Shown: positions 5,468 through 60,600 of the stretch, piece after piece
Layout of the letters: every line of letters starts with the position of its first letter
Numbering within the stretch: position 1 is the first letter of the stretch
Virus record (IMG/VR): IMGVR_UViG_3300026549_000042
Span: 53,745 to 117,744 of that record
Direction: 5' to 3' (one strand)
Source: a virus
Taxonomy: Duplodnaviria > Heunggongvirae > Uroviricota > Caudoviricetes
Length of the DNA stretch: 64,000 nt
Program-made: the position numbers and the translations under genes
Notes under the pieces: generated by a model
What the model was told of the DNA's origin: nothing
Seen by the model: only the letters and a program-made list of their open reading frames with translations
Database searches by the model: none

Positions 5468-6276
5468 TAAATAGTTTATCAATATATGGGTTTATGAATA
5501 AGAATTGTCAAAAGATTGATAATTCATTGTCATTTTGGAAAACCAAGTCACATTCACAATTAGTTTCATGTATAGAACCTCTTGATGTTATTCCTGAAAA
5601 TGTTCAAAAATTATCTTATATGTATTTAGACAAAGACCCAGGAATTAAAGGTACATATATGACAGAACAAATTACTTCAATAATTGACAATACATTTTTG
5701 AAAGATAATTTGACAAGAAAGAATCATAAAGAGATTTTTGAGACATACAGGAAATATCAATCAAGAATAACAGTTCATGAAGACTTAGACTATATACAAA
5801 GGCATTATGATGATATTATTGAAATGATTGAAGAATGGAGATATGCAGACTATGGTGGAATGAAATATATGTGGCAAGAAAGAGCTGGTGTTGATAAAGC
5901 ATTTTTTAAAAAATACTTAGAAGACATATTTTTACAACATCAAATATCAGTATATATATTTACTCATAATGAACTTGACAATAAGATAATAGGATATTCG
6001 GTTATGCCAAATATTTATTCTATCAACAATCATCATGTTCCTGAAGTATCATATATGCTTCGTAAATGTTTGTTAAAGAATGATAAAGTAAATTTGCGAA
6101 ATATAACTGAATATATTGATTGGATTACTTTCTGTAATACAATGAAAAACCTAAACATAGATATTTTGGCAGTAAATTGGGGATGTTCTGATAAAGGTGT
6201 AAAATGGTATAAAGAACATAAATGGCCATTGTTATATAAAGAAAATAAATACTTTGTAAACATTAAACTATCATGA
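5458..6276 (+). CDS. hypothetical protein
   Basis: 272-aa ORF; its start lies inside the tandem repeat and only the last ATG is in the long frame. Confidence 0.5.
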   Translation: MNYVNSLSIYGFMNKNCQKIDNSLSFWKTKSHSQLVSCIEPLDVIPENVQKLSYMYLDKDPGIKGTYMTEQITSIIDNTFLKDNLTRKNHKEIFETYRKYQSRITVHEDLDYIQRHYDDIIEMIEEWRYADYGGMKYMWQERAGVDKAFFKKYLEDIFLQHQISVYIFTHNELDNKIIGYSVMPNIYSINNHHVPEVSYMLRKCLLKNDKVNLRNITEYIDWITFCNTMKNLNIDILAVNWGCSDKGVKWYKEHKWPLLYKENKYFVNIKLS

Positions 6277-7463
6277 TACAATTAGAAATTCCATATACAT
6301 ATGAAAACTCTTCAAATCCTTGGTTGATGGATAAAATGGATGATAGCGATGTACTAGAATTTAACGGTCATAAATATACTGCTGAATACTTATGGACGTT
6401 AGATATTGAAGGTCGCAAGAAAGCCTTACAGAATGTGTTTCTCTATTATAGGGATCACGGTTTTCCATATCCTAATATATTTTATAAAGACATAGAAAAG
6501 GAATTTGAGAAGCTCATTCGGTATAATGTAAATAATGTAATAAATAAAGATGGATATATATCTAATTCAAGTAATATTTGTTTAAATTTATGTAAGTATT
6601 TTTGTAAAGATTATTTCTATAAAGCATCGGATGGTAATATGTCTGTTGAAGATGTATTTTATAATGATGAACTATTTATAAAAGTATTGAAAAACAGAAT
6701 GGGATGGAATACAACTAAAGAAGGTGGTATAGAACGCCCATATTTATTTCCTATATCTGATAAACAAATATTAAATGGAATACGTAATTCAGGATTAGGG
6801 TATGGTGTTTCAAACTTTAGACCAGTAGTTGCTAAATATATGTATGATCATGCTTTAGATTTAATCTTTGATTTATATGATTTTGATATAATTGATCCAT
6901 ATATATTTGACTATTCTGGTGGATGGGGTGCTAGAATGATGGGTGCTTTGTCTATATCAAATTGCCATTATGATTGTACAGATCCATTGACACATGAATG
7001 CTTGAAAGATATTGAAAAAACATTGTTGCACCATAATCAAGAAGTAAATGTATATGATAAATGTTCGGAAGACAACTTCTTTATGAATGAACAATTTAAG
7101 GAAAAATATAATATAATTGGTTCATGTCCTCCATATTATGATCAAGAAATCTATTCAAAAGATGATACACAAAGTACATCTTCAAATGACAATTATGTGG
7201 ATTGGCTTAATAACTATTGGAAAGATACTATAAAAAATTGTCATTATATGTTAGACAAAACAGGCATATTCATATTAGTCATTAAAGAAAAACATGTAAA
7301 ATATGAATTAATGAAAGATATGAATGACGTTATAGTAAAAGAAGGATTTGAATTGGTGGATGATAAACAATATAAATCAAATACTAATCATCTAAGCGGT
7401 AAAGCAAAAACAGGTAGAACATCTAAAAATAATGAACATATATTGTTTTATAAGAAGCTTTAG
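6273..7463 (+). CDS. hypothetical protein with methyltransferase-like motifs (possible gamma-class amino-methyltransferase fold)
   Basis: Motif I-like DPYIFDYSGGWGARMMGA and motif IV-like SCPPYY about 75 aa later; start overlaps the upstream stop (ATGA). Confidence 0.45.
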   Translation: MIQLEIPYTYENSSNPWLMDKMDDSDVLEFNGHKYTAEYLWTLDIEGRKKALQNVFLYYRDHGFPYPNIFYKDIEKEFEKLIRYNVNNVINKDGYISNSSNICLNLCKYFCKDYFYKASDGNMSVEDVFYNDELFIKVLKNRMGWNTTKEGGIERPYLFPISDKQILNGIRNSGLGYGVSNFRPVVAKYMYDHALDLIFDLYDFDIIDPYIFDYSGGWGARMMGALSISNCHYDCTDPLTHECLKDIEKTLLHHNQEVNVYDKCSEDNFFMNEQFKEKYNIIGSCPPYYDQEIYSKDDTQSTSSNDNYVDWLNNYWKDTIKNCHYMLDKTGIFILVIKEKHVKYELMKDMNDVIVKEGFELVDDKQYKSNTNHLSGKAKTGRTSKNNEHILFYKKL

Positions 7464-8764
7464 CTAATTATTTCATAAATCCATTCTTTTAATTCATTTA
7501 TATTCCAAAATTCTAAGTAGTTTAAATTATTTTGTTTAGCTATATTTCTCTTATTTACATCACGTATAGTCCAACAATTTATAGCATTATTGTAGAATTT
7601 GGTATTTTTACTTTTCCAATGTTCTAATATTAAATTATCTTCTTCTGTTCCTTCATAAGGTTTTCCGCCATGTGTCCAATGATAGTTACATTCAATATAT
7701 GTATCTAAACTTGGAATATAAAAGTCACAAGCAAAAGGATATACATTAGATTTATATTGATAGAGTGCATCAGGATATTTTTCTTTTAATAACTTATATG
7801 ATTCTTCTTCAGGTTTTGATGTATTAAATGTATGATTTTTGCGTTTTGTATCTAATACCTTTTGTATACATTCTTCTGAAAAACGTTTTTGTTTAGATAT
7901 TTCAGATTTTAAATAATTATCTACTCCATATTTTTTTATTAGTGTTTGTTTTCTTTTTTCATTAACTTCTGGTGTTTGAGCTGCTAATATACCCTTTTTA
8001 TGTATTTCTGGTATTTGATATGGATGAATATATCCTGTTCTTTCTTTTAATGTATTTTGTATTTTATTTTTTACTACATCTGAACATATAGGGGCTGGAC
8101 CACCATATTTTTTAATATTTGTTTGCTTTGTTTTTTCTTTAATATCTTCTCGTTGAGATGAATGTTCAACCCCATATTTATTTATATTATTTTGCTTAAC
8201 TAATGTTTTAAAATAATTTGTTTTAAACATTAAATCACCAAACTTTTCTATAATAGTATTGTTAGCCTTTTCTCTATTTGTAAAATTTTCATCTCCGTAT
8301 CTTTCTAATTTTGTTTGTTTTGTTTTTTCTTTAATATTATCATTTAATAATGGAGAAGTTGTTCCATATTTTTCTAAACATGTTTTCTTAACCTTTTCTT
8401 TAACTATACTTGAATTAACAGGATTTTCAACACCATATTTTTCTAAACATGTTTTCTTAACCTTTTCTTTAACATTCTTATCTAATGTTGAACATCTACA
8501 AGAACAATGAGATCTATATTTATTTTGTCCTAAATAAGTAACTTTATTACCACATACAGGACATACTGGACGAACTTCAATATTATAATATATTCTATAA
8601 ATTGTTTCAGTAAATGATTCAGAATCTTCAAATCTATTTATTAAATATTTTTCAATTTCTTCAGGATATTTATGTTTGTTTAATTTTGTAATATTATTTA
8701 TTTCAATTTTTTTATTTTGTTTTATAAATAATTTAATTATATCATTATCTGTTATATCTTTCAT
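7460..8764 (-). CDS. free-standing homing-endonuclease-like protein: Zn-ribbon, tandem K-x-LEKYG DNA-binding repeats, C-terminal nuclease-like domain
   Basis: CPVCGN...CSCRCS zinc ribbon; five or more repeats of KEKxKKTxLEKYG(V/T).NP; C-terminal CDFYIP...IECNYHWTHGG block; sits immediately downstream of nrdD. Confidence 0.55.
   Translation of the reverse strand: MKDITDNDIIKLFIKQNKKIEINNITKLNKHKYPEEIEKYLINRFEDSESFTETIYRIYYNIEVRPVCPVCGNKVTYLGQNKYRSHCSCRCSTLDKNVKEKVKKTCLEKYGVENPVNSSIVKEKVKKTCLEKYGTTSPLLNDNIKEKTKQTKLERYGDENFTNREKANNTIIEKFGDLMFKTNYFKTLVKQNNINKYGVEHSSQREDIKEKTKQTNIKKYGGPAPICSDVVKNKIQNTLKERTGYIHPYQIPEIHKKGILAAQTPEVNEKRKQTLIKKYGVDNYLKSEISKQKRFSEECIQKVLDTKRKNHTFNTSKPEEESYKLLKEKYPDALYQYKSNVYPFACDFYIPSLDTYIECNYHWTHGGKPYEGTEEDNLILEHWKSKNTKFYNNAINCWTIRDVNKRNIAKQNNLNYLEFWNINELKEWIYEIIS
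8375..8495. repeat. intragenic direct DNA repeats (about 45-60 bp units) encoding the LEKYG protein repeats
   Basis: ccatatttttctaaacatgttttcttaaccttttctttaac occurs twice almost identically. Confidence 0.7.
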
Positions 8765-8863: not shown

Positions 8864-10591
8864 TTAATTCTTAAAATGTTTTACTCGGTCATGGAATTCC
8901 TTCTTTTTACCAGCATTAAAGTGTTCTACTTGTGTACTTAAATATCCTGTGACTCTTCCAAGTTGGTCTATTTTTTCGCAACCACACTTTGGACATTTGT
9001 CTAAACTAAGATCCCATATACGTTCACCGCAATTATGACATTGTGAAATCTTTACATTTATTGCAAAATATGGTATATCTTTTTCCATAGCATAATCTAC
9101 TAAACTCTCAATTCCATCAATATTATTATATGGAACCTCACCAACTTCGGTATAAGTGATACACCCGGCGTTTGAATACGATGTGAGTTGGCTTTCTATA
9201 TCAATCTTTTCAAAAGGATCACATTCATGGTATACAGGTACATGCATTGAATTGGTAAAATATTTCTTATAATCCTTTTCTTTGTCTTCATTATAGAACC
9301 AAGTAACATTTTCTATATCAAATTCTGGAAATGCCTTTTGAAATTTTTTAAACGCTGTATGACAAAGATTTTCTGCTGGTGTATAATAAACTCCAAAATT
9401 AAGTTTATATTCCTTCTTAAATTCTGATGTCCTATCAAGCCAAAGTTGCTCAATTTGCTTTGCATATTTCATACCTTCTTCACAAGTATGGTCAAATCCA
9501 AACATAATAATTAATGCTTCAGAAAGTCCAAGTTGTCCAATTACAATAGTACCATGTTTAAGAGCTGAAATAATACCTTCATCTTTATGATATCCACTCA
9601 TAGTATGGTTTTCATACATAAATTTTGCTGATTTTACGGATTGTGAACAAATGTGATTGAATCGTTCGAGAAGCATATCCTTTGCCTCATGAAGTTTCTT
9701 GTCAAGTAGTTTTATGAATTCATTCCAAACTTGTTCAACTAATTCCGTAGATTCTCTGTTTAAATATTCTATCACATTGTCTTTTGCAACCTTTTTGACT
9801 GTCATTGCTGCTAAAGTAGGAAGTATGATAGTTACTGGGCAAATATTACCACGACCATCCTTTTGAATAGCTGAAAATACATCATCAATCTTATCAAATT
9901 CACCATCAATAGCATGTTGAACGTTATTCTTAAAATTATCTAATGCATTAATGTCTAATAGATTAACTGTACGACATCCCATAGTATTAAAAAATTCTAT
10001 TTGGCGTTCTGTTTTATCAACTTCTATATATGATTCTTTATTAATAAATAAACCAAGTTTTTCCATAAAAATATTAGGATTTTTACCAACTTGATTATAT
10101 AATTTATTATAAGTTTCAGGATCTAATGAATCAATAAATTCTTGTTTTTGCTTTCTATCTTGTTTAAGTGCATTAGTATTGTTACTCCAATCTGCATTTG
10201 CATAATTAGGATAAATACGCTTTGTGGTTGATTCTAATGCAAGACGTTTCAAGTCATAGTTAGGTGTTCCTGGTTTATCATTTACGCCTTTTTTATATTG
10301 AAATATACCACATGGGAAAATACTTGTTACACCATTTTCACCAAGACCCTCCATAGATACTTCTAAAAGAGCTTTTGTTACCATACGACCTGCTGGTAAA
10401 GTACAAGTACCGTAATTAATACTTGTGAAGGGTAGCTGATTCCCGCTCCTTGATTGTAATGTATTTAAATTGTGATACATCCCTTCAACGGCTTGATGAA
10501 TTTCCTTTTCTGTCATGTCCATTGCATACTTCCAAGCGTCTTTATATTGTTTATACTTAGAATCTGTAATTTCTATATCTGTTACTTTCAT
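8864..10591 (-). CDS. nrdD: anaerobic ribonucleoside-triphosphate reductase NrdD, C-terminal fragment (catalytic barrel, Zn ribbon and glycyl-radical motif)
   Basis: Matches T4/E. coli NrdD blocks: LNTLQSRSGNQLPFTSINYGTCT, VTSIFP, PNYDLKRLALESTTKRIYP, YYTPAENLCH, CHNCGER...CPKCGC, RVTGYLS; its own start MKVTDIEI. Confidence 0.9.
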   Translation of the reverse strand: MKVTDIEITDSKYKQYKDAWKYAMDMTEKEIHQAVEGMYHNLNTLQSRSGNQLPFTSINYGTCTLPAGRMVTKALLEVSMEGLGENGVTSIFPCGIFQYKKGVNDKPGTPNYDLKRLALESTTKRIYPNYANADWSNNTNALKQDRKQKQEFIDSLDPETYNKLYNQVGKNPNIFMEKLGLFINKESYIEVDKTERQIEFFNTMGCRTVNLLDINALDNFKNNVQHAIDGEFDKIDDVFSAIQKDGRGNICPVTIILPTLAAMTVKKVAKDNVIEYLNRESTELVEQVWNEFIKLLDKKLHEAKDMLLERFNHICSQSVKSAKFMYENHTMSGYHKDEGIISALKHGTIVIGQLGLSEALIIMFGFDHTCEEGMKYAKQIEQLWLDRTSEFKKEYKLNFGVYYTPAENLCHTAFKKFQKAFPEFDIENVTWFYNEDKEKDYKKYFTNSMHVPVYHECDPFEKIDIESQLTSYSNAGCITYTEVGEVPYNNIDGIESLVDYAMEKDIPYFAINVKISQCHNCGERIWDLSLDKCPKCGCEKIDQLGRVTGYLSTQVEHFNAGKKKEFHDRVKHFKN

Positions 10592-26530: not shown

Positions 26531-27025
26531 ATGCTTAGAATTTTAAATATTACAGCACCAGACATTAATAATGGTAATGGAATTAGAGTAACACTGTGGG
26601 TAGCAGGTTGCAAGCATTATTGTAAAGGCTGTCATAACCAATGGACATGGAAATATGAGCAAGGAAAAGTATATCGTTATGAACAAGAAAATATAAAAAA
26701 GGAACTTGCTAATTGGTTAAATCGTGATTATGTTGAAGGATTGACATTATCAGGAGGTGATCCGTTGTGTCAAGATAATGATGGACTATGTGAATTGCTT
26801 GATTTGATCAAATGGTTTAGAAAAGAATATCCAACAAAGAACATTTGGTTATATACTGGATATACAAAAGAAGAAATTGACAATTCTAATAACTATATAA
26901 TGAAAGAAGTTGTGAACAGTATTGATGTGTTAGTTGATGGTCCGTATATTGAAAGTCTAAGAGATATATCACATACTCCATTTAGAGGCAGCACAAATCA
27001 AAGATTAATATATATTAAGAAATAG
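26531..27025 (+). CDS. nrdG: anaerobic ribonucleotide reductase activating protein (radical SAM)
   Basis: DINNGNGIRVTLWVAGCKHYCKGCHNQWTW, LTLSGGDPL, IWLYTGYT, VLVDGPY, FRGSTNQ; collinear with E. coli NrdG. Confidence 0.9.
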   Translation: MLRILNITAPDINNGNGIRVTLWVAGCKHYCKGCHNQWTWKYEQGKVYRYEQENIKKELANWLNRDYVEGLTLSGGDPLCQDNDGLCELLDLIKWFRKEYPTKNIWLYTGYTKEEIDNSNNYIMKEVVNSIDVLVDGPYIESLRDISHTPFRGSTNQRLIYIKK

Positions 27026-27057: not shown

Positions 27058-27456
27058 ATGAAAAGTCTTTATACATATATTTTAGAAGCAGATAGTAAAG
27101 ATGATAAGGAAAAAGATATGACTCGTAGAGGTAATATCAAATTTACTATATGGGAAGCACCAGACAAAAAGGTAAAATGGATAGAAAATAATAATAAGTA
27201 TCAAAAGATTGAATATAAATATGAAGATAAAGACAATGAAATATACATTGATTTTCTTTTAGGATTTAAAGAAAATGAATGGAAGCTTTGGATTGGAAAA
27301 ATAGGAGCCTTGACTTATGATGATGACCCTTATTGTGGATTTGATACAGATTCATTTAGAGATGCTATTTTGTTAGCATTAGACAAGGTTGAAGAATTTA
27401 TTGATAAAGTTAATGAAGATCCTGATAATTATATACAATTCTATAAGCTAAAATAA
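27058..27456 (+). CDS. hypothetical protein
   Basis: 132-aa ORF. Confidence 0.5.
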   Translation: MKSLYTYILEADSKDDKEKDMTRRGNIKFTIWEAPDKKVKWIENNNKYQKIEYKYEDKDNEIYIDFLLGFKENEWKLWIGKIGALTYDDDPYCGFDTDSFRDAILLALDKVEEFIDKVNEDPDNYIQFYKLK

Positions 27457-27541: not shown

Positions 27542-28384
27542 ATGAATAAACCAGAAGTACTTATATTTCCAGATGTACATGGAAGAAAATTTTGGAAAGA
27601 TGCTATTGACAAATTTCCAAAGAATCAATATCCCGATTTGAAGATAGTTTTCTTAGGTGACTATATAGATCCTTATGTAGATTATGATGGGATAAGTAAA
27701 GAGGAAGCATTTGTAAATTTTGAAGATATTCTTGAATATATCAATAATGATTCACGAATAGTTCCTTTAATTGGAAATCATGATTGGCACTATTTTGTAA
27801 GTCTTGATACTTGTCGTATTGATAAAGCTCGTGAAAGAGATATTGAATATATGTTCAAGAACAATATTTCAAAATTTAGACTATCATATATACTTGAACT
27901 TAATGATTCCAAATATTTGTTTAGTCATGCAGGAATAACACAGAAGTGGCTAAATGATATTACTGGCATGGCTACACAGGAAGTAAATAAATGGAATCCT
28001 GGTGAAGGTGAAAATTATGTAGATCCAAAGACAGATGAAAAATATATTTGGATTGAAAAAATGTCCCATATTGCCAATAGTCATGATTTTTCATTGCTTG
28101 AAACTTGTCTTCAAAAATATAATGACTATTTTTACAGTTGTCCTATTTCAATAATTAGTCATGAAAGAGGCGGTTGGTACCCTCATGGATCTCTTATTTG
28201 GGCAGATATACATGAACATCTTTTTAATGAAGATCTAAAAGGATATTACCAAATATTTGGGCATACATATTCATATCCATCTACATCAGAACCTGCTATA
28301 TCTCCAATGGGGCATTGCTGGGCTATGCTTGATTGCGGTAGTGCATTTGTAATGGATATTGAAGGCAACATTGAAAAAATATAA
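27542..28384 (+). CDS. metallophosphoesterase (Ser/Thr phosphatase / ApaH-like calcineurin fold)
   Basis: PDVHG, LGDYIDPY, GNHDW motifs in canonical order. Confidence 0.8.
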   Translation: MNKPEVLIFPDVHGRKFWKDAIDKFPKNQYPDLKIVFLGDYIDPYVDYDGISKEEAFVNFEDILEYINNDSRIVPLIGNHDWHYFVSLDTCRIDKARERDIEYMFKNNISKFRLSYILELNDSKYLFSHAGITQKWLNDITGMATQEVNKWNPGEGENYVDPKTDEKYIWIEKMSHIANSHDFSLLETCLQKYNDYFYSCPISIISHERGGWYPHGSLIWADIHEHLFNEDLKGYYQIFGHTYSYPSTSEPAISPMGHCWAMLDCGSAFVMDIEGNIEKI

Positions 28385-28400: not shown

Positions 28401-29261
28401 ATGTTTGAAAAGGTAACACCAAGTCATCCAGATAAGATAGCTGATCGTATTGCTGGAGCTATAGTAGATTTAGCATATACTATTGAAAAAAATCCTAAGA
28501 TTGCTGTAGAAGTATTAATAGGACATGGGGAATGCAATATTATAATTGAAAGTAATGTATATGATAAATTGTCAAATACTGATATACAACATATAGTATA
28601 TCGTATTTGTAATGATAATAAGATTTTTGTAGACATACACAAAATTCCACAAGATACATATTTAGCTAATAATCAAATAGGTGAGATAAAATGTGGTGAT
28701 AATGGTATATTTAAAGGTACACCTGTAACATATGAACAACAAAAATTGTCATTAATCACACAACTTATATATGATAACTATCCTTATGATGGTAAATACA
28801 TATATAATGAAAAGGAAGATACTATAATAGGATGTCAATCACATATACAAACAAATAATTTAATTAATATATTGAAGAAATTTGCAAAGAATGTGAAAGC
28901 AAATCCATTAGGGGATTGGACAGGCGGTATTGATTCTGATTCTGGTGCTACTAATAGAAAACTTGGTAGTGATATGGGAGATTCAGTAACTGGTGGCGGT
29001 CTGCATGGTAAAGATCTTTCAAAAGCAGATGTAGCTGTCAATATATACTGTTTTCTTAAAGCACAAGAACTAAAGAATGACTATGAACTATATTGTGCAA
29101 TTGGTGATGATACTATAGATGGTAAGAAATATTCTGAAATTGTTGAAATTGCAAGAGAATATATTGAAAGAATTGGAGGATTTGAAAAGTTTGCGGAATG
29201 GGGACTAATAACATATGAATCATCAATTACAAACAGATTAATAAGCAAATTAAATTCTTAA
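28401..29261 (+). CDS. compact, divergent S-adenosylmethionine synthetase (MetK) homologue
   Basis: SHPDKIADRIAGAIVD matches MetK EGHPDKIADQISDAVLD; GATNRKLGSDMGDSVTGGGLHGKDLSKADVAVNIY matches MetK [38 protein letters not shown]; 286 aa versus about 384. Confidence 0.65.
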   Translation: MFEKVTPSHPDKIADRIAGAIVDLAYTIEKNPKIAVEVLIGHGECNIIIESNVYDKLSNTDIQHIVYRICNDNKIFVDIHKIPQDTYLANNQIGEIKCGDNGIFKGTPVTYEQQKLSLITQLIYDNYPYDGKYIYNEKEDTIIGCQSHIQTNNLINILKKFAKNVKANPLGDWTGGIDSDSGATNRKLGSDMGDSVTGGGLHGKDLSKADVAVNIYCFLKAQELKNDYELYCAIGDDTIDGKKYSEIVEIAREYIERIGGFEKFAEWGLITYESSITNRLISKLNS

Positions 29262-30340: not shown

Positions 30341-30523
30341 ATGTCAATTAAAGAAGTAATATATGAAGTTCTTAAGAACAATATGGACAATAACTGTAAT
30401 AATGATACCGAAATTGTTGTAGATGGTGAGAATTTTATGGGAGCCCCTATTAAACGAATTTATTATGATAAGGAAGTAAACCAATTATGTATAAAAATAA
30501 ATGAAAATGAAGCGATGGATTAG
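30341..30523 (+). CDS. small hypothetical protein
   Basis: 60-aa ORF. Confidence 0.35.
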   Translation: MSIKEVIYEVLKNNMDNNCNNDTEIVVDGENFMGAPIKRIYYDKEVNQLCIKINENEAMD

Positions 30524-30971
30524 TATTTGTATTGTATTATTTATATCTATTATATGTCAAGCACAACGTATATATGTCGGTAATTCTACATCATATTCAA
30601 ATATTGTAGTTAATATCAAAAATGGATATGTATATACTGGAGATTCTTCATTACGTTCAAATATAATTATGCATTACAATAATGAATATTTGTATGAGTA
30701 TGATTCGAATTTAACATCAGATATTATTGCAACATATTCTAATGGAAAGATATATAAAGGAAAAACAAAATTGACATCTAATATTTTATATACATACAAA
30801 AATAACAAAATATATAATGGAAATTCTACATTAAATTCCGACATATTATATATCTATATTAACAATAAATTTTATAAAGGAAATTCTACAATGGAATCTA
30901 ATGTAATATTACGAACAAGTTCATATGTAAATCCTTTAATATTAGTAGTAATAAGTAATTTAATATATTAA
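30501..30971 (+). CDS. secreted tandem-repeat protein
   Basis: Signal peptide MKMKRWISICIVLFISIICQA, then six repeats of about 20 aa (Y.GNST/S.L.SNI....Y.N.KIY). Confidence 0.5.
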   Translation: MKMKRWISICIVLFISIICQAQRIYVGNSTSYSNIVVNIKNGYVYTGDSSLRSNIIMHYNNEYLYEYDSNLTSDIIATYSNGKIYKGKTKLTSNILYTYKNNKIYNGNSTLNSDILYIYINNKFYKGNSTMESNVILRTSSYVNPLILVVISNLIY

Positions 30972-31004: not shown

Positions 31005-33005
31005 ATGAGTGGTATTTATTTAACAATTGGTATGGTGGCTTTTGGCGCATTGCTATTTATTGCAACTGTTGTAGCAGTTTTGACACGCTATAGGAGATCT
31101 GCACCTGATGAACTGTTGGTAGTTTTCGGTAAAGCTGGTAAAGTAAAGGATGAGCATGGAAAGACAATTATGACACCTTCTAAGATTATTCAGGGTGGTG
31201 GTACTTTTGTATGGCCTGTCATTCAGGATTTCAAGAAGATGTCAATGAAGCCTATTCAGATTAAGGCAACTGTTGACGGTATTGATTCACAAGCAATTCA
31301 GTTGCATTTGCCAGTAGTATTGACAACTGCTATTTCTCAAGACAAGATGATCCAGCAAAATGCAGCAACACGTTTCTTGAGTGCATCACCTGGGGAAATT
31401 CAGCAACAGATTCAAGAGATTTTGATTGGTGAGACTCGTGCTATCATGGCAACAATGCTTATTGAGGACATTAATGCTGACCGAGATAAGTTCCTTGCTA
31501 AAGTACGTACAAATCTTGAACAGGAATTGATTAAGATTGGTTATGATGTAACTAACATTAACATTTCTGAAATTACTGATGATGCCAACTATATTAAGAA
31601 TATGGGTCAAAAGGCAACTACACGTAAGCAAGCAGAAGCAGAGGCAGATATTGCTGAGCAGCGTAAAGTAGGTAATGTAAAGATTGCAAATACTAAGAAG
31701 GAAGAAGAAATTGCTGTGGCTGCTGCAGAAAAGGAGAAGCAGGTACAGGTAAATCAAACTAAACAGGAACAGGAAGTAACTGTGGCTAATATTAATCGTG
31801 AAAAGGAGATTAAGTTAGCAGAAGCAACTAAGGAACGTGAATCTGGTATTGCTGCACAGGAAGCTGAAAAGGCAGCTCGTATTGCTGAAGCTCAGGCAGA
31901 TGCTGAATCAAATAAGGCTAAGGCTATGGCACGTCAGATTGCAAGTGTAGCAGAGGCAGAGGCAGATGCTGAATCAAAGAGAGCGGAATTTGAAGCAACA
32001 CAGACTAAGAATATTGCAAAAGCGCAAGCAGATGCCGAAGCTGCACAAAATGAGGCAGAGGCATTGAAACAGACGCGTATTGCTCAGGCTAATCAGGAAA
32101 AGGAAGCTAATGTGATTAAGGCTACCCAGGAAAAGGAAGCTAAGGCAGCTGAATATGAATCAAGTAAGCGCCAGAAGAAAGCAGAGCAAGACAAATTGGC
32201 AGGTGTAGCTGAACAGGAAGCAAAAATTGATGTTGCAAAGGCTCGGGCTAAGGCAGCTCAGGCAGAGGCAGATGCAGTAAAGGTCGGTGAGACTGCAAAG
32301 GTTGAAGCAGAAATGTCAGTGGCAAAAACTAGACAGGAACGTCAATTGGAAGTAAATAAGGCACAAGCAAAAGCAGCAGAAGAGCAATTGAATGCTACTG
32401 AAATTGTACCTGCAAATAAGGCTAAGGAAAAAGCTATTATTGAAGCGGAAGCCATTAAGCGTAAAGCAGAACTTGAAGCAGAAGCTGTAAAGGCTCGTAT
32501 TCTTCGTGAGGCGGAAGCAGAAGCCCAGAAGACACAAATGATTAAGGAAGCTGAAGCTGAAGGTAATCGTAAGAAGTTACTTGCAGAAGCTGAAGGTGCA
32601 GAAGCTATGGCACTTGCTAAAGCTAAAGGTATACAACAGGAAGCACTTGCTCCAGCTATGGCATTTGAAAGAATGATTCAGGCAGCAGGTAGTCCAGAGA
32701 TGGCAGTACAATGGAAGATGGTTGATCAGTATAAGGGTATTGCAGAAGCTCAGGCTCATGTATTAGAGCATGTACAACTTGGAAATGTTACTGTCTATGG
32801 TGATAAGAATACTGGTGCTGATTTTGCTAAGAGCTTTGTTCAAAACTTTGCACCAGCTCTCGATATGATTAACCACGGTGTTAAGGATCAATTCCAGAGT
32901 TTATTTGGAACTAAAAAGGATGAACTTATGCCTCCAACAGATCCTACTCCATCCAATGGAAAGAATAGTGATCAGGACAATTTAGTATTTGAAGACATAG
33001 ATTAA
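31005..33005 (+). CDS. flotillin-like SPFH/band-7 protein (YqiK family) with long Ala/Glu-rich coiled coil
   Basis: N-terminal membrane hairpin IGMVAFGALLFIATVVAVL...RYRRSAPDE.LVVFG, SPFH core, about 350 aa of AEAEA/KAKA coiled coil; mirrors E. coli YqiK. Confidence 0.8.
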   Translation: MSGIYLTIGMVAFGALLFIATVVAVLTRYRRSAPDELLVVFGKAGKVKDEHGKTIMTPSKIIQGGGTFVWPVIQDFKKMSMKPIQIKATVDGIDSQAIQLHLPVVLTTAISQDKMIQQNAATRFLSASPGEIQQQIQEILIGETRAIMATMLIEDINADRDKFLAKVRTNLEQELIKIGYDVTNINISEITDDANYIKNMGQKATTRKQAEAEADIAEQRKVGNVKIANTKKEEEIAVAAAEKEKQVQVNQTKQEQEVTVANINREKEIKLAEATKERESGIAAQEAEKAARIAEAQADAESNKAKAMARQIASVAEAEADAESKRAEFEATQTKNIAKAQADAEAAQNEAEALKQTRIAQANQEKEANVIKATQEKEAKAAEYESSKRQKKAEQDKLAGVAEQEAKIDVAKARAKAAQAEADAVKVGETAKVEAEMSVAKTRQERQLEVNKAQAKAAEEQLNATEIVPANKAKEKAIIEAEAIKRKAELEAEAVKARILREAEAEAQKTQMIKEAEAEGNRKKLLAEAEGAEAMALAKAKGIQQEALAPAMAFERMIQAAGSPEMAVQWKMVDQYKGIAEAQAHVLEHVQLGNVTVYGDKNTGADFAKSFVQNFAPALDMINHGVKDQFQSLFGTKKDELMPPTDPTPSNGKNSDQDNLVFEDID

Positions 33006-34781: not shown

Positions 34782-35696
34782 ATGAATGAAACAAAAACAA
34801 TGAATAGAACATTAACTTTAAGTGATGCTGACAAAAATGAACTTAAAGACAAACTTACATTTGATTTTATATCAACTAATACAATTATTTGTAATGACAT
34901 AAATAAAATAAAAAATTCTATTCCCAAAAAATATTTTAATCTTATATTACTTGACCCACCATACAATATCACAAAAAAATATGGTTCAGATATATTCCGT
35001 GAACTTCCAGATGATGAATACTATGAATATATAAAATATATTATTGATCATTGTTTGAGTGTACTGGATGATAACGGAACACTTTATATATGTGGTGATT
35101 GGAAGACGTCTTATATTCAAAGAAAGGTATTAGAATGGTTTGAAAATCAAGGAATGTGTGATGTAATAAATAGAATTACATGGTCACGTGATAAAGGTAG
35201 AGGGGCATTAAACAATTGGAAGAATAATTGTGAAGACATTTATATGGTTGTAAAGGATAAAAATCATTATTATTTTAATGTAGATGCTGTAAAGATTAGA
35301 AAGACCGTATTAGCTCCTTATAAAGACAAAAATGGGAACAATAAAGATTGGACCACAGATGAAAATGGTAATTATAGAATGACATATCCATCAAATGTTT
35401 GGTATGATATAGTTGTACCGTTTTGGTCTATGGCAGAAAATACAAATCATCCTACACAGAAATCAGAAAAACTTTATGCAAAATTAATTTTAGCATCATC
35501 TAAAGAAGGAGATACTATATATGAACCATTTGCTGGCGTATGTACCGGGTGTGTTACTGCAAAGAAATTAAATAGAAACTATGTTGGTGTAGAAATGTGT
35601 GAAGAATATTGTTTGTTGGGTCTAAAACGTCTTAAATTAGCAGAAGTAAATAAAAACATACAAGGATATGAAGACGGATTATTTAGAGATAAATAA
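34782..35696 (+). CDS. DNA methyltransferase, beta-class (N6-adenine or N4-cytosine), orphan
   Basis: Motif IV LILLDPPYNI precedes motif I YEPFAGVCTGCVTA; no adjacent restriction endonuclease candidate. Confidence 0.8.
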   Translation: MNETKTMNRTLTLSDADKNELKDKLTFDFISTNTIICNDINKIKNSIPKKYFNLILLDPPYNITKKYGSDIFRELPDDEYYEYIKYIIDHCLSVLDDNGTLYICGDWKTSYIQRKVLEWFENQGMCDVINRITWSRDKGRGALNNWKNNCEDIYMVVKDKNHYYFNVDAVKIRKTVLAPYKDKNGNNKDWTTDENGNYRMTYPSNVWYDIVVPFWSMAENTNHPTQKSEKLYAKLILASSKEGDTIYEPFAGVCTGCVTAKKLNRNYVGVEMCEEYCLLGLKRLKLAEVNKNIQGYEDGLFRDK

Positions 35697-48359: not shown

Positions 48360-49970
48360 ATGGCAAATGATAAGTTAAATAGTACTAAATCAATAAATAG
48401 AATAAGAAATAAGTGGAAACGACCTTGGAATATTCAAAAATTTGATGATCTTTATAATAGAGATGAGCGTTTTTTCAGTATACTTATAAAGGGAGCAATT
48501 TCATATCTTAACAATCATATTAAAATGTATGATACAAAAATCAATCATTTCATATTGAATACTGGATCATCATATATGTATGTTGAAAATAATGGATATG
48601 AATTTTCTTGGAATGAGACAAGTGGTGAAGACTATATTTATATGCAAATGCCAAGATGTATTGTTGAGATAGGATCTATATCTATTCCACAAGAAGAACT
48701 GTCACAATCATTTGCTCGTGGAAACTATGAAAGACGAGATGGTGAAGTAATAAAAGAATATAATGCAGAAATTAAACGAATTCCAATAGAGGTTGAATTG
48801 TCATTACATTATGTATTTGGTACATTTAATGAATCTATAGTTGTATTACAGGAACTTATTGACAAAATGATATTTCAACAATATTTCAACATAACATATC
48901 TTGGAAATATAATTCGTTGTTCTATTGAGTTTCCAACAAATACACAAATACAATTAAATAAGATTGATTTTTCGTCAACAGATGTTACTCAAAAAAGTAT
49001 AGACATTACGGTTACTATATGTTCAAACTATCCTCTTATTAATGAACATTCAGAAATACCTGGAACACAAATCATATCTAAATTTGGAGGATTGATAAGT
49101 GATAATTCCGAAAAACATATTGTCATAACTATAGACGGTGTAGAAATATATAGACATACAATATTTATAGATTGTAGAAAGTTTGATTTGAATAATGACG
49201 GTAAAATAGATGAAAATGAAATAGAAATCATAAGAGAATTTATTGAACGTTTTGATACTGATAATGACGGTGAAATTACCACACATGATATACAAGTAAT
49301 AGAAGAAGATTTCATTAATAATGTATATAATATAAAATATGATGTATTGAATATTGGAACTGTCAATAATCAAAATCTTGTAATAATAAAACATCTATTT
49401 GATATTTTAGATATTAATAAAGATGAAGTAGTAAACAAATATGAGATTACAACAATACTTAAGCATATAGAACTAATATCAAAATATGATTTCAATAATG
49501 ATTTGAAAATTGATTATGATGATATAGTTGCAATATTAAACTACTTAATTAGTCATGAAAATCTTACATATGATAGTTTATGGGAAAAATTAGTAAGTTT
49601 TTGTGATATGAATATATTTGTTATATCTGAAGAACTTTATAATTATATTTTAGAAATAGTAAAGACAAACATAACCGATGCTAAAATTGCTATTGAATAT
49701 TACATTAATCAAAACAATATAGAAATTGATAATGACATATTAGTTGAATTATATAAGATAATAGATGAAATGATTGAATTCAGTATATATGACATTAATA
49801 ATACTGGAGTCATTTCAAAAGATATTGCAGATACTATAATGAATGAAATATCTGAATATTCTAACAAAGAAATTAGCTATTATGTATCTTCAAACATAAT
49901 AATTCATAGTAAAGACCATACATTATCTGACAGTTCAATAACAGATACTGAAACAATGAAAAACTTCTAG
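48360..49970 (+). CDS. hypothetical protein with paired dockerin/EF-hand-like Ca-binding loops
   Basis: DLNNDGKIDENEIEII.EFI and DTDNDGEITTHDIQVI (DxNxDGxIxxxE, about 22-aa spacing); a second degenerate pair DINKDEVVNKYEI and DFNNDLKIDYDDIV. Confidence 0.55.
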   Translation: MANDKLNSTKSINRIRNKWKRPWNIQKFDDLYNRDERFFSILIKGAISYLNNHIKMYDTKINHFILNTGSSYMYVENNGYEFSWNETSGEDYIYMQMPRCIVEIGSISIPQEELSQSFARGNYERRDGEVIKEYNAEIKRIPIEVELSLHYVFGTFNESIVVLQELIDKMIFQQYFNITYLGNIIRCSIEFPTNTQIQLNKIDFSSTDVTQKSIDITVTICSNYPLINEHSEIPGTQIISKFGGLISDNSEKHIVITIDGVEIYRHTIFIDCRKFDLNNDGKIDENEIEIIREFIERFDTDNDGEITTHDIQVIEEDFINNVYNIKYDVLNIGTVNNQNLVIIKHLFDILDINKDEVVNKYEITTILKHIELISKYDFNNDLKIDYDDIVAILNYLISHENLTYDSLWEKLVSFCDMNIFVISEELYNYILEIVKTNITDAKIAIEYYINQNNIEIDNDILVELYKIIDEMIEFSIYDINNTGVISKDIADTIMNEISEYSNKEISYYVSSNIIIHSKDHTLSDSSITDTETMKNF

Positions 49971-49997
49971 TTCTTAGAACTAGAAGTTTTTGTTTTT
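49964..49997. terminator. bidirectional terminator between convergent genes
   Basis: cttctagttc-tta-gaactagaag followed by tttttgttttt. Confidence 0.55.
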
Positions 49998-51726
49998 ATT
50001 GTATTAATGAAGATGGCCTTACGCCGTTCATTACATTTTTAGAGAAATTATATCTTAACCGCATATTATTTATATTATATTGGGCTGTTATTCGTTTTCC
50101 TCGTATAGAAGTAGATGGACCGTTCTTCAAATCTTCCATTTTCTTATAGAACATTGCAGAACCAGTACCTAAGTCACCATGTTCACCTTTTAATACAGTT
50201 CCATCTCCACGTGTACCTAATGCTGCACCTGCTCTATACGAAGTACCAAGCCATTTTTGTAATATATTAAAACCAAAATCTCTAAAATAGTTTATTAAAT
50301 TCTTTTCTGGTTTTAACAGTCTAAGTTTTTCTTTCATATAGTCAGTCAATATTGAACTATTATATTTACGTGTTCTTCTATCGGCACCATATATATTGCC
50401 TAATGCAAAGTTTTTATCAGAACCAAGTAATTTGTCTACATGAGTATTTATAAATTCTTCAGATGCGGTAACAATATTTTTTACGCTTGTATCAAAAACT
50501 ACTTCATTATCAACATAAATGCCATTTGATCCAAACATAAATCCCATGATTTCATTCATTGTATATTCATAGCATCTGTCATATGTTATCTTTATTGAAT
50601 TCTTACCAAATTGAAATGGATTATCATTAGTCATTTCTCCTGGTGCATAAGATCCTAATGAAGAAATATCAAATTCACAATTTAATAGTCTGTATAACTT
50701 AAATGACATTTTATTGTCCTTTTGGGATTCATTGGACAAATCTTTGTATTGTGTGCCTCCTAATATCTTACCATCTTCTCTGTTTTTGTTTGGTGTATGC
50801 AAAATCTTTATTGGTGATTGCATAATGACAATGTCCATATCAAACTTGCGTAGGTTTTCTGGAATTATTTCTTTGCAATTAATATCATCAAAACAAGCAT
50901 ATTTATATAAAGAAAACAATGTTGTCAATCTCATATCAATAGCATCTTCCAAAAAATCTATTTCTATTGATTTTTCTTCACCAAATTTAGCAATATATGG
51001 ATTACCCGCATTATTGAGATTTTTTATACTTTTAAAGAACCAAGGAGCTCTAGTATTTATGTAACTTAATAATCTTACAAATTTGATTAATGCTATACCT
51101 TTATTTGTTAGACCCGAAGTTTGATATCTTTTTTCACATAAATATAAATATTTTAATGCACTATTGATAGCTGGCCAAGAATCATTTGTCATTGCATCAT
51201 CACCGATAAATGATGAAATGGGAGATTTCATATTAAGAATACTACCAAAAAGCCCATACATTGTATTAAAATTGAAAAATATCTTAAAATACATCCATGA
51301 TGGACCTGCATAGTTATTTCCAAGACCCTTTAAGAATAGATTACGTTCATTAATAAAATCATCATACCCCCATAAAGGCAACTGCAATCTATAGTTCTGA
51401 TTGTCATAATAATTAGAAAAATTCCAATTAGATTTTGCATTTCTATTTAATGATGTATGTTTCCATCTTTCATTTTGTTCTGTAATTCTAGAATTAGAAC
51501 CAAAAGAATCTGCAATTTCTGATACAGTATTTGTAAGATCATCATTTTTCTTATCATTATAATAAAATGACATTACATCATCCATCAAATCATCACCAGC
51601 ATTATAAGATTCTCCAAATTCTGATGACGGCATCAATATTGATAATCTAGATTCATTTATTCCTTGTGCAATTCCTGATAAAGCTGAATCTTTTATTAAG
51701 TTTCCAAAATCTGACCAAGTACTCAT
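49996..51726 (-). CDS. hypothetical protein (first gene of a long minus-strand, probably structural, module)
   Basis: 576-aa ORF. Confidence 0.55.
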   Translation of the reverse strand: MSTWSDFGNLIKDSALSGIAQGINESRLSILMPSSEFGESYNAGDDLMDDVMSFYYNDKKNDDLTNTVSEIADSFGSNSRITEQNERWKHTSLNRNAKSNWNFSNYYDNQNYRLQLPLWGYDDFINERNLFLKGLGNNYAGPSWMYFKIFFNFNTMYGLFGSILNMKSPISSFIGDDAMTNDSWPAINSALKYLYLCEKRYQTSGLTNKGIALIKFVRLLSYINTRAPWFFKSIKNLNNAGNPYIAKFGEEKSIEIDFLEDAIDMRLTTLFSLYKYACFDDINCKEIIPENLRKFDMDIVIMQSPIKILHTPNKNREDGKILGGTQYKDLSNESQKDNKMSFKLYRLLNCEFDISSLGSYAPGEMTNDNPFQFGKNSIKITYDRCYEYTMNEIMGFMFGSNGIYVDNEVVFDTSVKNIVTASEEFINTHVDKLLGSDKNFALGNIYGADRRTRKYNSSILTDYMKEKLRLLKPEKNLINYFRDFGFNILQKWLGTSYRAGAALGTRGDGTVLKGEHGDLGTGSAMFYKKMEDLKNGPSTSIRGKRITAQYNINNMRLRYNFSKNVMNGVRPSSLIQ

Positions 51727-51732
51727 GTTCTA

Positions 51733-52890
51733 TTATAATTTATTTAATTTATAAGTAAATGTATTTCTTAATATTGAATCATCTATTTCGGTATTGTTTT
51801 TTACATAGTCAAAATCAACATCATAAGACATATCATTTATTTTTGAATACATTTTTACTTTACCATGAATATAATCTATATCTGTTATGTAACTATCATT
51901 TTTGTTTTCTTCAGTTACTTTTATGTCTTCAATATTCTTATTATTGTAAAATTGATAATTATTCCAATATGGTGTCAAATCAACAATTCTTTTATTAAAT
52001 GGAAAATATTTATTGTATATTATGATTTTTGATGCTTTATAATATTCTTCATTTTGTATTTCAACTATTCTATGAGTACTTAAAAAGTCATCCAATAAAT
52101 TTCTAAGCATGATACTTTTCAAGTTGTCATTTGTTGATGTTATAAGAACTGACAAATAATCATATATATTACTATCAATTTGTATGTCTTTATTTATGTC
52201 TATTATCCATTTACCTTCTTTGTTATATCCAATATGATAGTCATTCTTTATTGTATCTTCATATATAAATACAAATTCATCATTATCTATATCTTGTTCC
52301 GAAGCAATAAAGTCAGTTTCTTCTTCATTTATGACATATATAGAATTTTTGTACTTTATTATAAAATCTGAAATATCTGATATTTGCCCTATATCTTTAC
52401 TTTGCAGATTACTTTTGACAGAATATAACAATACAATCATATTAAATAAGATATATTTCAAATAGTTTTCTTGACTTTCTTGATTCATGTCTAACTCATC
52501 AAAAGCATTTCTAATGTTTATAGTATCATCACTTTCTAATATATATTTTACTAATCTATTAAAATATGTCTTATGATCTTGTACATCTCCATTAAGTATG
52601 TTATCAATTTCTTCTTCATCAAATATATGAAAACCATCCTCGGTATATTGACTTTGAACATACATAACAAAATCATCTATCTTGTCATCATTGAATTCAG
52701 TCAAAAAGTTATTGAATACATTTAATATATTATACAAATTAACGCCCATAATAGTTTCATATATATGACTATCTAAAAATCTTTGTAAAGCGTCTTCATA
52801 TAATTCAGCATGAACTATATCATATTTATTGTTTATATAGTCATTGAACTTTACTGGTCTTGTATTATATATCAATTTGTCATAATTCAT
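51733..52890 (-). CDS. hypothetical protein
   Basis: 385-aa ORF. Confidence 0.5.
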   Translation of the reverse strand: MNYDKLIYNTRPVKFNDYINNKYDIVHAELYEDALQRFLDSHIYETIMGVNLYNILNVFNNFLTEFNDDKIDDFVMYVQSQYTEDGFHIFDEEEIDNILNGDVQDHKTYFNRLVKYILESDDTINIRNAFDELDMNQESQENYLKYILFNMIVLLYSVKSNLQSKDIGQISDISDFIIKYKNSIYVINEEETDFIASEQDIDNDEFVFIYEDTIKNDYHIGYNKEGKWIIDINKDIQIDSNIYDYLSVLITSTNDNLKSIMLRNLLDDFLSTHRIVEIQNEEYYKASKIIIYNKYFPFNKRIVDLTPYWNNYQFYNNKNIEDIKVTEENKNDSYITDIDYIHGKVKMYSKINDMSYDVDFDYVKNNTEIDDSILRNTFTYKLNKL

Positions 52891-52894
52891 AATT

Positions 52895-54544
52895 TTATTT
52901 TAATGCATTAAGATTTATTTTTGGCATTGTATGTAAGTTATCAATATTAGATATAGGACCTCGTTTAATTAAATATAAATATTGATTTATTTGATTTGAT
53001 TCATATGAATATGTAAATTTCATGCTATCAATATAGTATATGTCAGATAATGCAATATTTGGCATTGATGAAGATGATGAATAAATAAATTCTGCCTGAT
53101 TCATATCTTCAATTCCTTCTAACATATTGTCTGATTCTAATGTTCCACCTTCTTCTGCAACATTATTTGATCTATCAATAAGTAATCTCTCTATTGTAGG
53201 ATTGTCTTCAAATATTGCAACATTTACAAGTGTCCCACGTTGCAATCCAAAATTTGGTTCCTCCAACAATACTTCTAATATTCTTTGTCTATGCTTCGAA
53301 AAGAATTTGTTTCTTATTATCTTTTGCTTATTTATTGGTAAATCATTACATTCAATAACAGTTTCTAATCCTTGTTGTTTAGCATATTCTTCAGTATGTT
53401 TTCCGTCAATTGAATTTTGTATGACTTCAATATCGTATCTTGACAATGAATTATTTCCATTATTTACATCTAATAAGTTAAGATTATACATTGTCAATGA
53501 TGTACCGCTTATAAGATCACTATTGTTTACTTGAACATTATAACTGCGTATTTTTAAGTTATTTGCTGCTTGAGTATTATTATAATTTGTAAGTGTTCTA
53601 TTCACATATCTTGTCTGATTTTCTGGTACATTAGTTGTACTTGTTGCATTAATGCCGACAAATGAATGAATTGCTAAGTTTTTTGGATTGACATTTTCTT
53701 CATTAAACAGCCATCCAACATTAACTAATACAATATATCCATATAAATCAACCCAACAGTCAAATATGTTTTGTTCATCTATACCTCCCCATTTTATATG
53801 TTGTTGTATGAAATTTGTATATGTTTGACGTTGTATTAGTCTTGGCAATCTGTCATTAATGTTTTTACAATGATCTGTAGAAGAAAAACCTAACTTACAT
53901 TTTTTTGCTATTTCATGAAGACATTCCCAAGTATTTGGCTGTTTGTTTTCTCCGGATGTACAGTCTTTTCCAGAACAACCGGCATATGTTATTTCCTCTA
54001 AATACATTTTTTTGAATGCATTTAACTTGTACGTACCAGAGTATAATATTCTGTTTCCAATTATATTACATCCAGTAATTTCAAATTCAAGCTTTATAGA
54101 CTTATATGTATTATTTACTTGTGGGACTAATATTACTTTTATTGAATTATTAAGTTCTGGTATATTCGTTGCTTTTATAATGCCTTCTGAATCATCCACA
54201 GTTATTGATATTGATGGTAGAAAATCATTATAAAAAATCGACATTGAAATAATTTGATTATAGTTTATTCGTCTATCATTAATATTGACTAATGGATATA
54301 ATATTCCTGAAACTTTTGTAGAGTCTATTTCTCCTGCCGCATCTGTAGGTATTGGGGCTACATCTTGTGTAATTGTTTCAGCAGAATTATTTGTTTCTTT
54401 TACTTCATTATTTCCATCAGACACACTATATATATCAGCCAAAGATATGAATTCTATCTCTGGATCATGAAATATTATAGGATCAGTAAAGTTTATTGGC
54501 TCTAATATTTCTTCATTTAAAATATTTTGACTATTATCTGGCAT
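52895..54544 (-). CDS. hypothetical protein
   Basis: 549-aa ORF; stop overlaps the next gene's start. Confidence 0.55.
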   Translation of the reverse strand: MPDNSQNILNEEILEPINFTDPIIFHDPEIEFISLADIYSVSDGNNEVKETNNSAETITQDVAPIPTDAAGEIDSTKVSGILYPLVNINDRRINYNQIISMSIFYNDFLPSISITVDDSEGIIKATNIPELNNSIKVILVPQVNNTYKSIKLEFEITGCNIIGNRILYSGTYKLNAFKKMYLEEITYAGCSGKDCTSGENKQPNTWECLHEIAKKCKLGFSSTDHCKNINDRLPRLIQRQTYTNFIQQHIKWGGIDEQNIFDCWVDLYGYIVLVNVGWLFNEENVNPKNLAIHSFVGINATSTTNVPENQTRYVNRTLTNYNNTQAANNLKIRSYNVQVNNSDLISGTSLTMYNLNLLDVNNGNNSLSRYDIEVIQNSIDGKHTEEYAKQQGLETVIECNDLPINKQKIIRNKFFSKHRQRILEVLLEEPNFGLQRGTLVNVAIFEDNPTIERLLIDRSNNVAEEGGTLESDNMLEGIEDMNQAEFIYSSSSSMPNIALSDIYYIDSMKFTYSYESNQINQYLYLIKRGPISNIDNLHTMPKINLNALK

Positions 54545-55002
54545 TAATAAAATACAAGACCTAATGATCTATCTATTACAAAATTACTATTTCCAACAGT
54601 AAGCTCATTGGGTGTTCTTTTTTCATTTGTCTTTTTTCTATTATCATTATACGTCTTTTCGTCTATAATAGTATCTGATTCATTAGCTAATATTGATGGT
54701 GTGTCTTGATGAATTAGACTTTCTAATATGTTTTCAATACTTGGTATATAAATAATCATATTTTCATTAAGTTCGAAAGGATTGGATATACCATTGAACT
54801 TACATATTATATCTCCATATTTATCATCTCCAAATATTGCTAATGATATTAAGTCAGGACGGGCAACATATTCTTTACTCACAACAATGACACTAGTTTG
54901 TGGTGATTGACTTAACTTATATGTTTTAGAAAGTAAGTCAATATATTTTTCATTATTTTGTGATAAATATGGTTTATTACTTAATATTTTATAATCTAAC
55001 AT
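54544..55002 (-). CDS. LysM-like domain protein (tail/baseplate accessory?), tentative
   Basis: YVARPDLISLAIFGDDKYGDIICKFNGISNPFELNENMIIYIP follows the LysM hydrophobic pattern (Y.V..GD.L..IA..Y......N......L..GQ.L.IP). Confidence 0.4.
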   Translation of the reverse strand: MLDYKILSNKPYLSQNNEKYIDLLSKTYKLSQSPQTSVIVVSKEYVARPDLISLAIFGDDKYGDIICKFNGISNPFELNENMIIYIPSIENILESLIHQDTPSILANESDTIIDEKTYNDNRKKTNEKRTPNELTVGNSNFVIDRSLGLVFY

Positions 55003-55118
55003 GTATAGACAAAAACATTTTTATATATATTTAAAAATATTTATTTATATGAAAATAGAGGACCCTTTAATAAAAAAGAGCCCTCATATATTAATATTAT
55101 ATAAAATTTATACTTTAA

Positions 55119-55526
55119 TTAAGGATTCAGTGTAGGATCAAGTGGTTCTTCCGTTTCCTCACCAGATTGTTGAGTATCTGGTGTTATATCACTACCATCA
55201 ACTACAATACTTTCATAAAGTGCTTTTACTAAAAGACTTAATGATTTAATTTGCGCCTGTTGTTCTGCTACAACTTTAATAAGATCACCTGTTGTATTTA
55301 TACCTGTTATTGATAGATCTTCTGATGTACTTTCAGATGCTTGTGAAACCGCACTTTGTAAATCTGCCGCATTCCAGTCAATATCTACTGCATTAATTAT
55401 TCCACCAAATTCTGAATCTACTCCTTCTTGTCCACTAACAAGTATTGGGGCAACACCAATTGCTTGTCCATCTGAACTTTCACGATATTTATTAAATAAT
55501 ATTCCGTTTTGTGTAAAATTTTTCAT
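55119..55526 (-). CDS. hypothetical protein
   Basis: 135-aa ORF. Confidence 0.45.
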   Translation of the reverse strand: MKNFTQNGILFNKYRESSDGQAIGVAPILVSGQEGVDSEFGGIINAVDIDWNAADLQSAVSQASESTSEDLSITGINTTGDLIKVVAEQQAQIKSLSLLVKALYESIVVDGSDITPDTQQSGEETEEPLDPTLNP

Positions 55527-55541
55527 TTTTGTTTATTTTAT

Positions 55542-57581: not shown

Positions 57582-57616
57582 AACTATTCTTAATTATTAT
57601 ATATTATATATTATTT

Positions 57617-59134: not shown

Positions 59135-59187
59135 AGTTAATATTTAGTTCTTTATATAATCTATATATTTAATAATATTTTTTTAAG

Positions 59188-60588: not shown

Positions 60589-60600
60589 TAATTATTTTTT

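Follow-up and report, generated by a model that had tools for sequence, protein, structure and literature searches.

S-adenosylmethionine (SAM) synthetase genes, metK, are known from viral genomes. Kieft et al. 2021 described viral metK as an auxiliary metabolic gene (AMG) whose products conserve the MetK substrate motifs and cluster apart from bacterial MetK; the gene is under purifying selection, is expressed, and co-occurs with dcm, among others in phages of Streptococcus suis. K00789 is present in 58.9% of the genomes of Ca. Heliusvirales, the NatCom phages, according to de Jonge et al. 2024. Renard et al. (PMC8223999) described, from a Streptococcus agalactiae prophage, a MetK with "135 amino acids" fewer than Escherichia coli MetK and an intact catalytic region, and tied it genetically to aggregation phenotypes. 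Here, we analyzed a metK-like gene in a 64,000-nucleotide stretch of a Caudoviricetes phage (IMG/VR record IMGVR_UViG_3300026549_000042, positions 53,745 to 117,744), hereafter referred to as the window. Our analyses make it probable that the product of this gene is a miniaturised, catalytically competent methionine adenosyltransferase (MAT), which would make SAM from ATP and methionine during infection and supply the SAM-consuming enzymes of the phage.

The open reading frame (ORF), 28401..29261 on the plus strand, starts with ATG and encodes 286 amino acids, as the initial annotation had placed it when calling it a compact, divergent MetK homologue. That assignment stands. The Pfam search detected the MetK N-terminal domain PF00438 at residues 3–70, with 43.6 bits against a gathering threshold of 33.1 (E=4.6e-11), and phmmer searches of the PDB returned MetK/MAT chains only, in two blocks covering residues 3–70 and 160–221. 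The profile of 119 family members matched E. coli MetK, for which we used a reference sequence identical to PDB 7ll3, with an hhalign probability of 96% (query 3–237, MetK 9–306). PHROG_1569 was matched over the full length, at residues 1–272 (E=3.7e-59). From the family alignment, AlphaFold2 gave a confident model (mean predicted local distance difference test score (pLDDT) 90.5, predicted template modelling score 0.90) that displays three successive beta-alpha-beta-beta-alpha-beta units, the three-domain fold of MetK-like MATs, and the top 50 Foldseek matches in the PDB are all MATs (E ~1e-17). Nearly the entire predicted structure superposes on MAT. A profile search had been named beforehand as the test for membership in an unrelated family; the profile and fold searches returned MATs only, and no sequence or fold similarity to a SAM lyase of the T3 SAMase type was found for the protein.

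The conservation extends to the active site. All 17 catalytic and substrate-binding positions checked by alignment, which cover the SAM- and ATP-binding residues, are retained, with F230 as W, and the second test set by the initial annotation, a loss of these residues, thus leaves the assignment standing as well. With the E. coli MetK residue in brackets, they are H9 (H14), D11 (D16), K12 (K17), E37 (E42), E50 (E55), Q84 (Q98), D100 (D118), D130 (D163), K132 (K165), W173 (F230), D180 (D238), R186 (R244), K187 (K245), D191 (D249), K204 (K265), K208 (K269) and D210 (D271). We take the roles of these residues to be those established by MetK structural work, e.g. Komoto et al. 2004. The complete set of 17 is found in 120 of 120 homologues (62–99% identity) and, among the 37 full-length representatives left after clustering at 50%, in 29. 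Across 119 sequences, 84 alignment columns are invariant, and the query carries all 84, including the motifs HPDK..DR, CGDNGIF, DGK, CQS, NPLGxWTGG, GATNRKLGSDM, TGGGLHGKDLSKAD and GGFEKxAEWGL.

Mapped onto the plus strand, these elements are spread over the length of the gene. HPDK (residues 9–12, 28425..28436), invariant in 119 sequences, aligns with His14, Asp16 and Lys17 of the E. coli triphosphate/Mg2+ site. CGDNG (residues 98–102, 28692..28706) is the counterpart of the MetK signature GAGDQG in the MAFFT, hhalign and family alignments, with Asp100 at the position of E. coli Asp118. The family-invariant DGK (residues 130–132, 28788..28796) corresponds to E. coli Asp163-Ala-Lys165; this segment was misaligned by both MAFFT and hhalign and was set by hand, with YDGK matching E. 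coli PDAK. The block GATNRK...GGGLHGKDLSKAD (residues 182–210, 28944..29030), which phmmer and the alignments match to E. coli GLTGRK..., holds R186, K187, K204, K208 and D210. The two MetK-block peptides on which the initial annotation relied were found at residues 9–23 and 182–216. In the C-terminal part, the alignments show GGFEKFAEWGL (residues 259–269, 29175..29207), an invariant motif specific to the family, followed by a phage-lineage-specific extension (residues 271–286, 29211..29258) modelled as a low-confidence helix (pLDDT ~59) and missing from most family members in the alignment.

The invariance of the catalytic residues bears on a different proposal of the initial annotation, namely that the protein is a dominant-negative or SAM-sequestering variant. 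A non-catalytic protein of this kind would poison host MetK or act as a SAM/ATP sponge, lowering the SAM available to type I/III restriction-modification and bacteriophage exclusion (BREX) systems. MAT active sites are assembled across the dimer interface, and heteromers could thus poison the host enzyme. The activity would be functionally analogous to that of T3 SAM lyase, which inhibits MetK by forming a complex with it (10.1101/2023.02.27.530186; PDB 8bb1 is among our Foldseek matches), and rare family members do have degenerate active sites. However, neither a poison subunit nor a sponge would require 17 catalytic residues to remain invariant across hundreds of lineages. With ~17–25% identity to bacterial MetK and trimmed interface elements, the protein is also unlikely to form heteromers with the MetK of many hosts, and less SAM would starve the DNA methyltransferase that adjoins metK in 65% of loci. 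We therefore disfavour interference and consider it very improbable.

An altered chemistry or specificity on the MAT fold deserves slightly more weight, although we still think it unlikely. The protein could accept another nucleotide or another amino-acid or thioether substrate, or yield another product, for example one feeding an uncommon type of DNA modification, and the family has invariant residues of its own close to the motifs that are compatible with such a change. However, all known adenine, ribose/triphosphate, metal and methionine-backbone contacts are kept, including the isoleucine of AIG that lines the methionine pocket, and the dominant neighbours of the gene are ordinary SAM-dependent DNA methyltransferases. 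Catalytic synthesis of SAM by a MAT remains our favoured reading.

The protein is ~100–120 residues shorter than E. coli MetK by alignment; the first estimate had been ~100 amino acids. The shortfall is distributed over ~11 sites (MAFFT and hhalign, with one hand correction). The first 6 residues are missing, the loop beyond helix 2 (E. coli VHSDMGFDANS) is shortened by ~7–11 residues and the gating loop by ~4, and ~11 residues are lost downstream of GAGDQG (E. coli YATNETDVLMP). A further ~5 residues are lost ahead of the DxK strand, ~9 from the beta6-beta7 hairpin, ~16 from helix 4 and the loop beyond it, ~7 from helix 5 and ~10 from the strand 10 region, the surroundings of the P-loop carry minor deletions of 1–3 residues, and the last ~39 residues of E. 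coli MetK have no counterpart. In the predicted structure, all three MAT domains are retained and no domain is lost. Therefore, "truncated", the term used at first, is a poor description of this protein.

The window gene adds a member, with an atypical genomic setting, to a phage family that is already known and very abundant. By tblastn, 25 GenBank phages encode a compact MetK at 57–63% identity, among them Streptococcus Javan prophages, Gardnerella phage vB_Gva_AB1, whose copy is annotated as SAM synthetase, Terrisporobacter phages and many "NatCom" gut phages; family members are 58–71% identical to the query. At least 8000 clusters were matched in a large protein database, and among the 120 matches listed there, 118 are 260–276 amino acids long and two are 286, all with PF00438 only. 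An exhaustive search of 1.8 billion representatives gave 182 at E<=1e-30, and at least 591 IMG/VR contigs carry a family member. Some relatives are longer. P0163, P0173, P0177, P0180 and P0207 (346–415 amino acids) have a 50–90 residue insertion beyond helix 2; these insertions are lineage-specific and unrelated to the canonical MetK segments at that place, and we rejected the idea that they are intermediates to canonical MetK. P0122 (582 amino acids) carries a ~310-residue insertion within the GGGL|HGKD phosphate loop, beginning with CLSGDS and ending with ...ITGN|C, which has an intein-like look; Pfam gave no intein or homing-endonuclease domain, and it was not retained as an intein.

The genomic neighbourhoods point to the consumers of the product. 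In annotated phages, the compact metK is flanked on one side by a small-terminase (TerS) or ParB-like gene and on the other by a DNA methyltransferase gene or a pair of them. We took the neighbours from the 80 best IMG/VR loci; methyltransferase counts, obtained by phmmer with four reference methyltransferases, cover 77 of them, and Pfam classing of the immediate neighbours covers 59–60 viral loci. In 50 of the 77 loci (65%), a DNA methyltransferase gene directly adjoins metK, and in 63 there is at least one within +/-4 kb. Position +1 holds one in 43%, -1 in 24% and +2 in 19%, compared with 0–8% for positions three or more genes away, which served as the internal control. TerS is the other common upstream neighbour (25 of 59 loci).

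This linkage also bears on a general metabolic role, in which the AMG would redirect the host methionine and organosulfur flow (methionine, SAM, S-adenosylhomocysteine, homocysteine, sulfide, autoinducer-2, polyamines) rather than serve phage enzymes, and a prophage copy would benefit the lysogen, for instance in aggregation or biofilm formation. Kieft et al. put this interpretation forward, and aggregation and glycocalyx changed when the prophage metK of S. agalactiae was deleted and complemented, but complementation was incomplete and secondary mutations confounded it (PMC8223999). The position-specific association with DNA methyltransferases and the location close to replication and packaging genes argue instead for a phage-centred role, and, with a T4-like portal, NrdD/G and topoisomerase II, the phage of the window and those closest to it have the appearance of large virulent phages. 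We give this role about as little credence as an altered chemistry.

From homology, fold, residue conservation and genomic linkage we infer the following mechanism. The whole three-domain MAT core is kept, together with every residue that binds triphosphate, Mg2+/K+, adenine and methionine in E. coli MetK; the protein thus most likely works as a dimer of the MetK type, in which both subunits contribute to each active site at their interface. The enzyme would raise or secure the SAM supply outside the host control of the host metK. Family-wide, the main consumers would be orphan DNA methyltransferases that shield phage DNA from restriction. In the window phage, the consumers would be the N6/N4 DNA methylase encoded at 34782..35696 and the radical-SAM protein NrdG, whose gene heads the gene run containing metK; NrdG would cleave SAM to activate NrdD and thereby act as an additional consumer.

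Several observations weigh against this picture of a SAM-producing enzyme. The C-terminal domain PF02773 scores 9.9 bits against a gathering threshold of 25, the central domain PF02772 is undetected in the Pfam search, and the TIGR01034 equivalog gives 38.5 bits against a cutoff of 309.4, aligning with residues 3–71 only. Both classical MetK signatures, which we take to be the PROSITE patterns GAGDQGxxxGY and G[GA]G[ASC]FSxK[DE], are altered, to KCGDNGIFKGT and to GGGLHGKD, the latter being one residue shorter. By strict curated criteria, the sequence is that of a non-standard MetK. The low TIGR01034 score and the altered signatures also explain why most database copies are named "hypothetical protein" and why PHROG_1569 is labelled "unknown function". 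Beyond the GGFEKFAEWGL motif, the last ~39 residues of canonical MetK are absent, including the conserved YxxTAAYGHFGR tail. Some sub-lineages have eroded sites, with 8 of the 17 positions kept in P0194 and 10 in P0156, and catalysis is therefore not obligatory for every member of the family. In the window and in the closest rumen-phage relatives, metK has no adjoining methyltransferase, and the proposed role of feeding a methyltransferase is thus transferred from other lineages. Finally, the searchable literature yielded no enzymology, assay or structure for any compact family member; nothing relevant on a SAM synthetase in an anti-defence role was found there either.

The two eroded sub-lineages, together with P0126 (13 of 17 residues) and P0183 (14 of 17), retain the GGFEK-AEWGL C-terminal motif and may be pseudoenzymes. 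A more far-reaching proposal, which we regard as speculative and rather doubtful, is that the compact MetK of phages represents a deregulated MAT reduced to the minimum, and the smallest natural SAM-making scaffold. It would have lost the elements for tetramerisation and product feedback and be dedicated to the neighbouring phage methyltransferase, perhaps coupled physically to it via GGFEKFAEWGL, and the sub-lineages with eroded sites would have been repurposed as non-catalytic binders of methyltransferases or of host MetK.

The gene is the last of a tight same-strand run. NrdG, the radical-SAM activase of anaerobic ribonucleotide reductase and a SAM consumer, is encoded at 26531..27025 (+; TIGR02491, 165 bits against a cutoff of 126; PF13353; phrog_626), and is followed by a hypothetical 132-residue protein lacking Pfam and PHROG matches (27058..27456, +) and a metallophosphoesterase (27542..28384, +; PF00149, 32.1 bits; weak PHROG matches of NinI-like and RNA-ligase-associated type). 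A distance of 16 bp separates the stop codon of the metallophosphoesterase gene from the metK-like start, which lacks a Shine-Dalgarno sequence and has a merely AT-rich leader. The initial annotation had singled out this neighbour. The adjacency itself holds, but Metallophos is not among the common neighbours of the gene in the Pfam scan of the 59–60 other viral loci; the pairing therefore looks incidental, and we rejected a functional coupling between the two proteins. A scan of 26200–31100, which includes the run from nrdG to metK, found no terminator-like sites, and a promoter scan of the same region was uninformative in this AT-rich DNA, giving 58 sites against 45.9 +/- 7.9 expected. No SAM riboswitch (Rfam at gathering thresholds) or tRNA (ARAGORN) was found in the whole window.

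The suggestion that the product supplies phage methyltransferases had named two genes, which fared differently. The product of 34782..35696 (+) is a clear beta-class N6/N4 DNA methyltransferase with DPPY before FAGVCTG (PF01555, E=2.2e-35; NF008572, E=3.5e-44, below cutoff) and a likely SAM consumer. It is the nearest clear DNA methyltransferase to the metK-like gene, 5.5 kb downstream, and the typical family context of an adjacent methyltransferase near TerS is not seen here. The product of 6273..7463 (+) gave no Pfam or NCBIfam match and a weak match to phrog_498 (E=2.9e-7) over residues 267–365 only; with DYSGGWG resembling motif I and SCPPYY resembling motif IV, its sequence may be that of a very divergent methyltransferase. 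NrdD, the anaerobic ribonucleotide reductase on which NrdG acts, is encoded at 8864..10591 on the minus strand (PF13597, E=6e-101), directly adjoined by a homing endonuclease gene (7460..8764, minus strand; phrog_3339, E=1.6e-24).

The DNA of the window, which has ~19–32% GC, encodes a T4-like portal (PF07230, E=5e-80), a terminase-like large protein, several glycosyltransferases and an SPFH/Band-7 protein, in addition to NrdD and the homing endonuclease. Several metagenome assemblies contain this same phage, with its gene order unchanged. Among GenBank phages, megablast gave no match to positions 20000–40000 of the window, and the phage thus has no close sequenced relative there. The closest relatives of the gene (66–69% identity) come from other large phages of the rumen. 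These encode topoisomerase II subunits and have an AAA ATPase gene directly downstream of metK. The loci of these relatives (L089 and L091) share a conserved neighbourhood unlike the methyltransferase cassette, in which metK and its AAA ATPase neighbour lie near Macro-domain and nucleoside 2-deoxyribosyltransferase genes. Elsewhere in the window, 31005..33005 (+) encodes the 666-residue SPFH/Band-7 (flotillin-like) protein, with a long Ala/Glu/Lys-rich coiled region, and 30501..30971 (+) a 156-residue protein with a signal-peptide-like N-terminus and ~7 tandem degenerate "Y.G.S...SNI" repeats, without a Pfam or PHROG match. A 536-residue protein with EF-hand calcium-binding motifs (48360..49970, +; PF00036, E=3.7e-12) is unusual in a phage. 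The minus-strand region 49996..63904 contains six large ORFs of 465–1075 amino acids that are presumably structural and have no Pfam match.

If our reading is right, the label "hypothetical protein", borne by thousands of genes in phages and prophages (PHROG_1569), conceals a complete miniaturised SAM synthetase. Phages would have a rationale for carrying it, namely SAM for their DNA methyltransferases and, in the window phage, also for the radical-SAM protein NrdG. If biochemically validated, a MAT of 260–290 residues would delimit the smallest catalytic core of an enzyme that is universally essential, and it could serve the enzymatic production of SAM or SAM analogues.

Compared with known systems, the window protein belongs to the bacterial/eukaryotic MetK sequence type, as judged by the HPDK, GD[QN]G, T[GN]RK and GKD motifs, and shares 11% identity with an archaeal-type MAT (Methanocaldococcus jannaschii, PDB 7p82). 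It is 17–25% identical to canonical bacterial MetK (E. coli, PDB 7ll3/1rg9; PF00438, PF02772 and PF02773; TIGR01034), from which it differs by the altered CGDNG, TNRK and GGGLHGKD and by the new invariant C-terminal motif GGFEKFAEWGL. Phage T3 SAM lyase is likewise a phage protein that acts on the SAM pool of the host, in connection with the evasion of restriction and BREX. The MetK proteins of Streptococcus prophages (12/111phiA; Javan) and ORF19 of Gardnerella vB_Gva_AB1 belong to the same compact family, with 58–63% identity over more than 94% of the length. These copies reside in temperate siphoviruses, in a TerS/ParB–MetK–DNA methyltransferase cassette, whereas the window gene follows the genes for NrdG and a phosphoesterase in a large phage with a T4-like portal and encodes a 16-residue C-terminal extension. 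The phage relatives of the window protein include those of the NatCom/Heliusvirales genomes. The viral metK surveys (Kieft, de Jonge) agree with our results on motif conservation and dcm co-occurrence; they were based on KEGG/HMM annotation and did not analyse the miniaturisation. Phage metK is already catalogued as an AMG, and our results add detail to it rather than a new kind of system.
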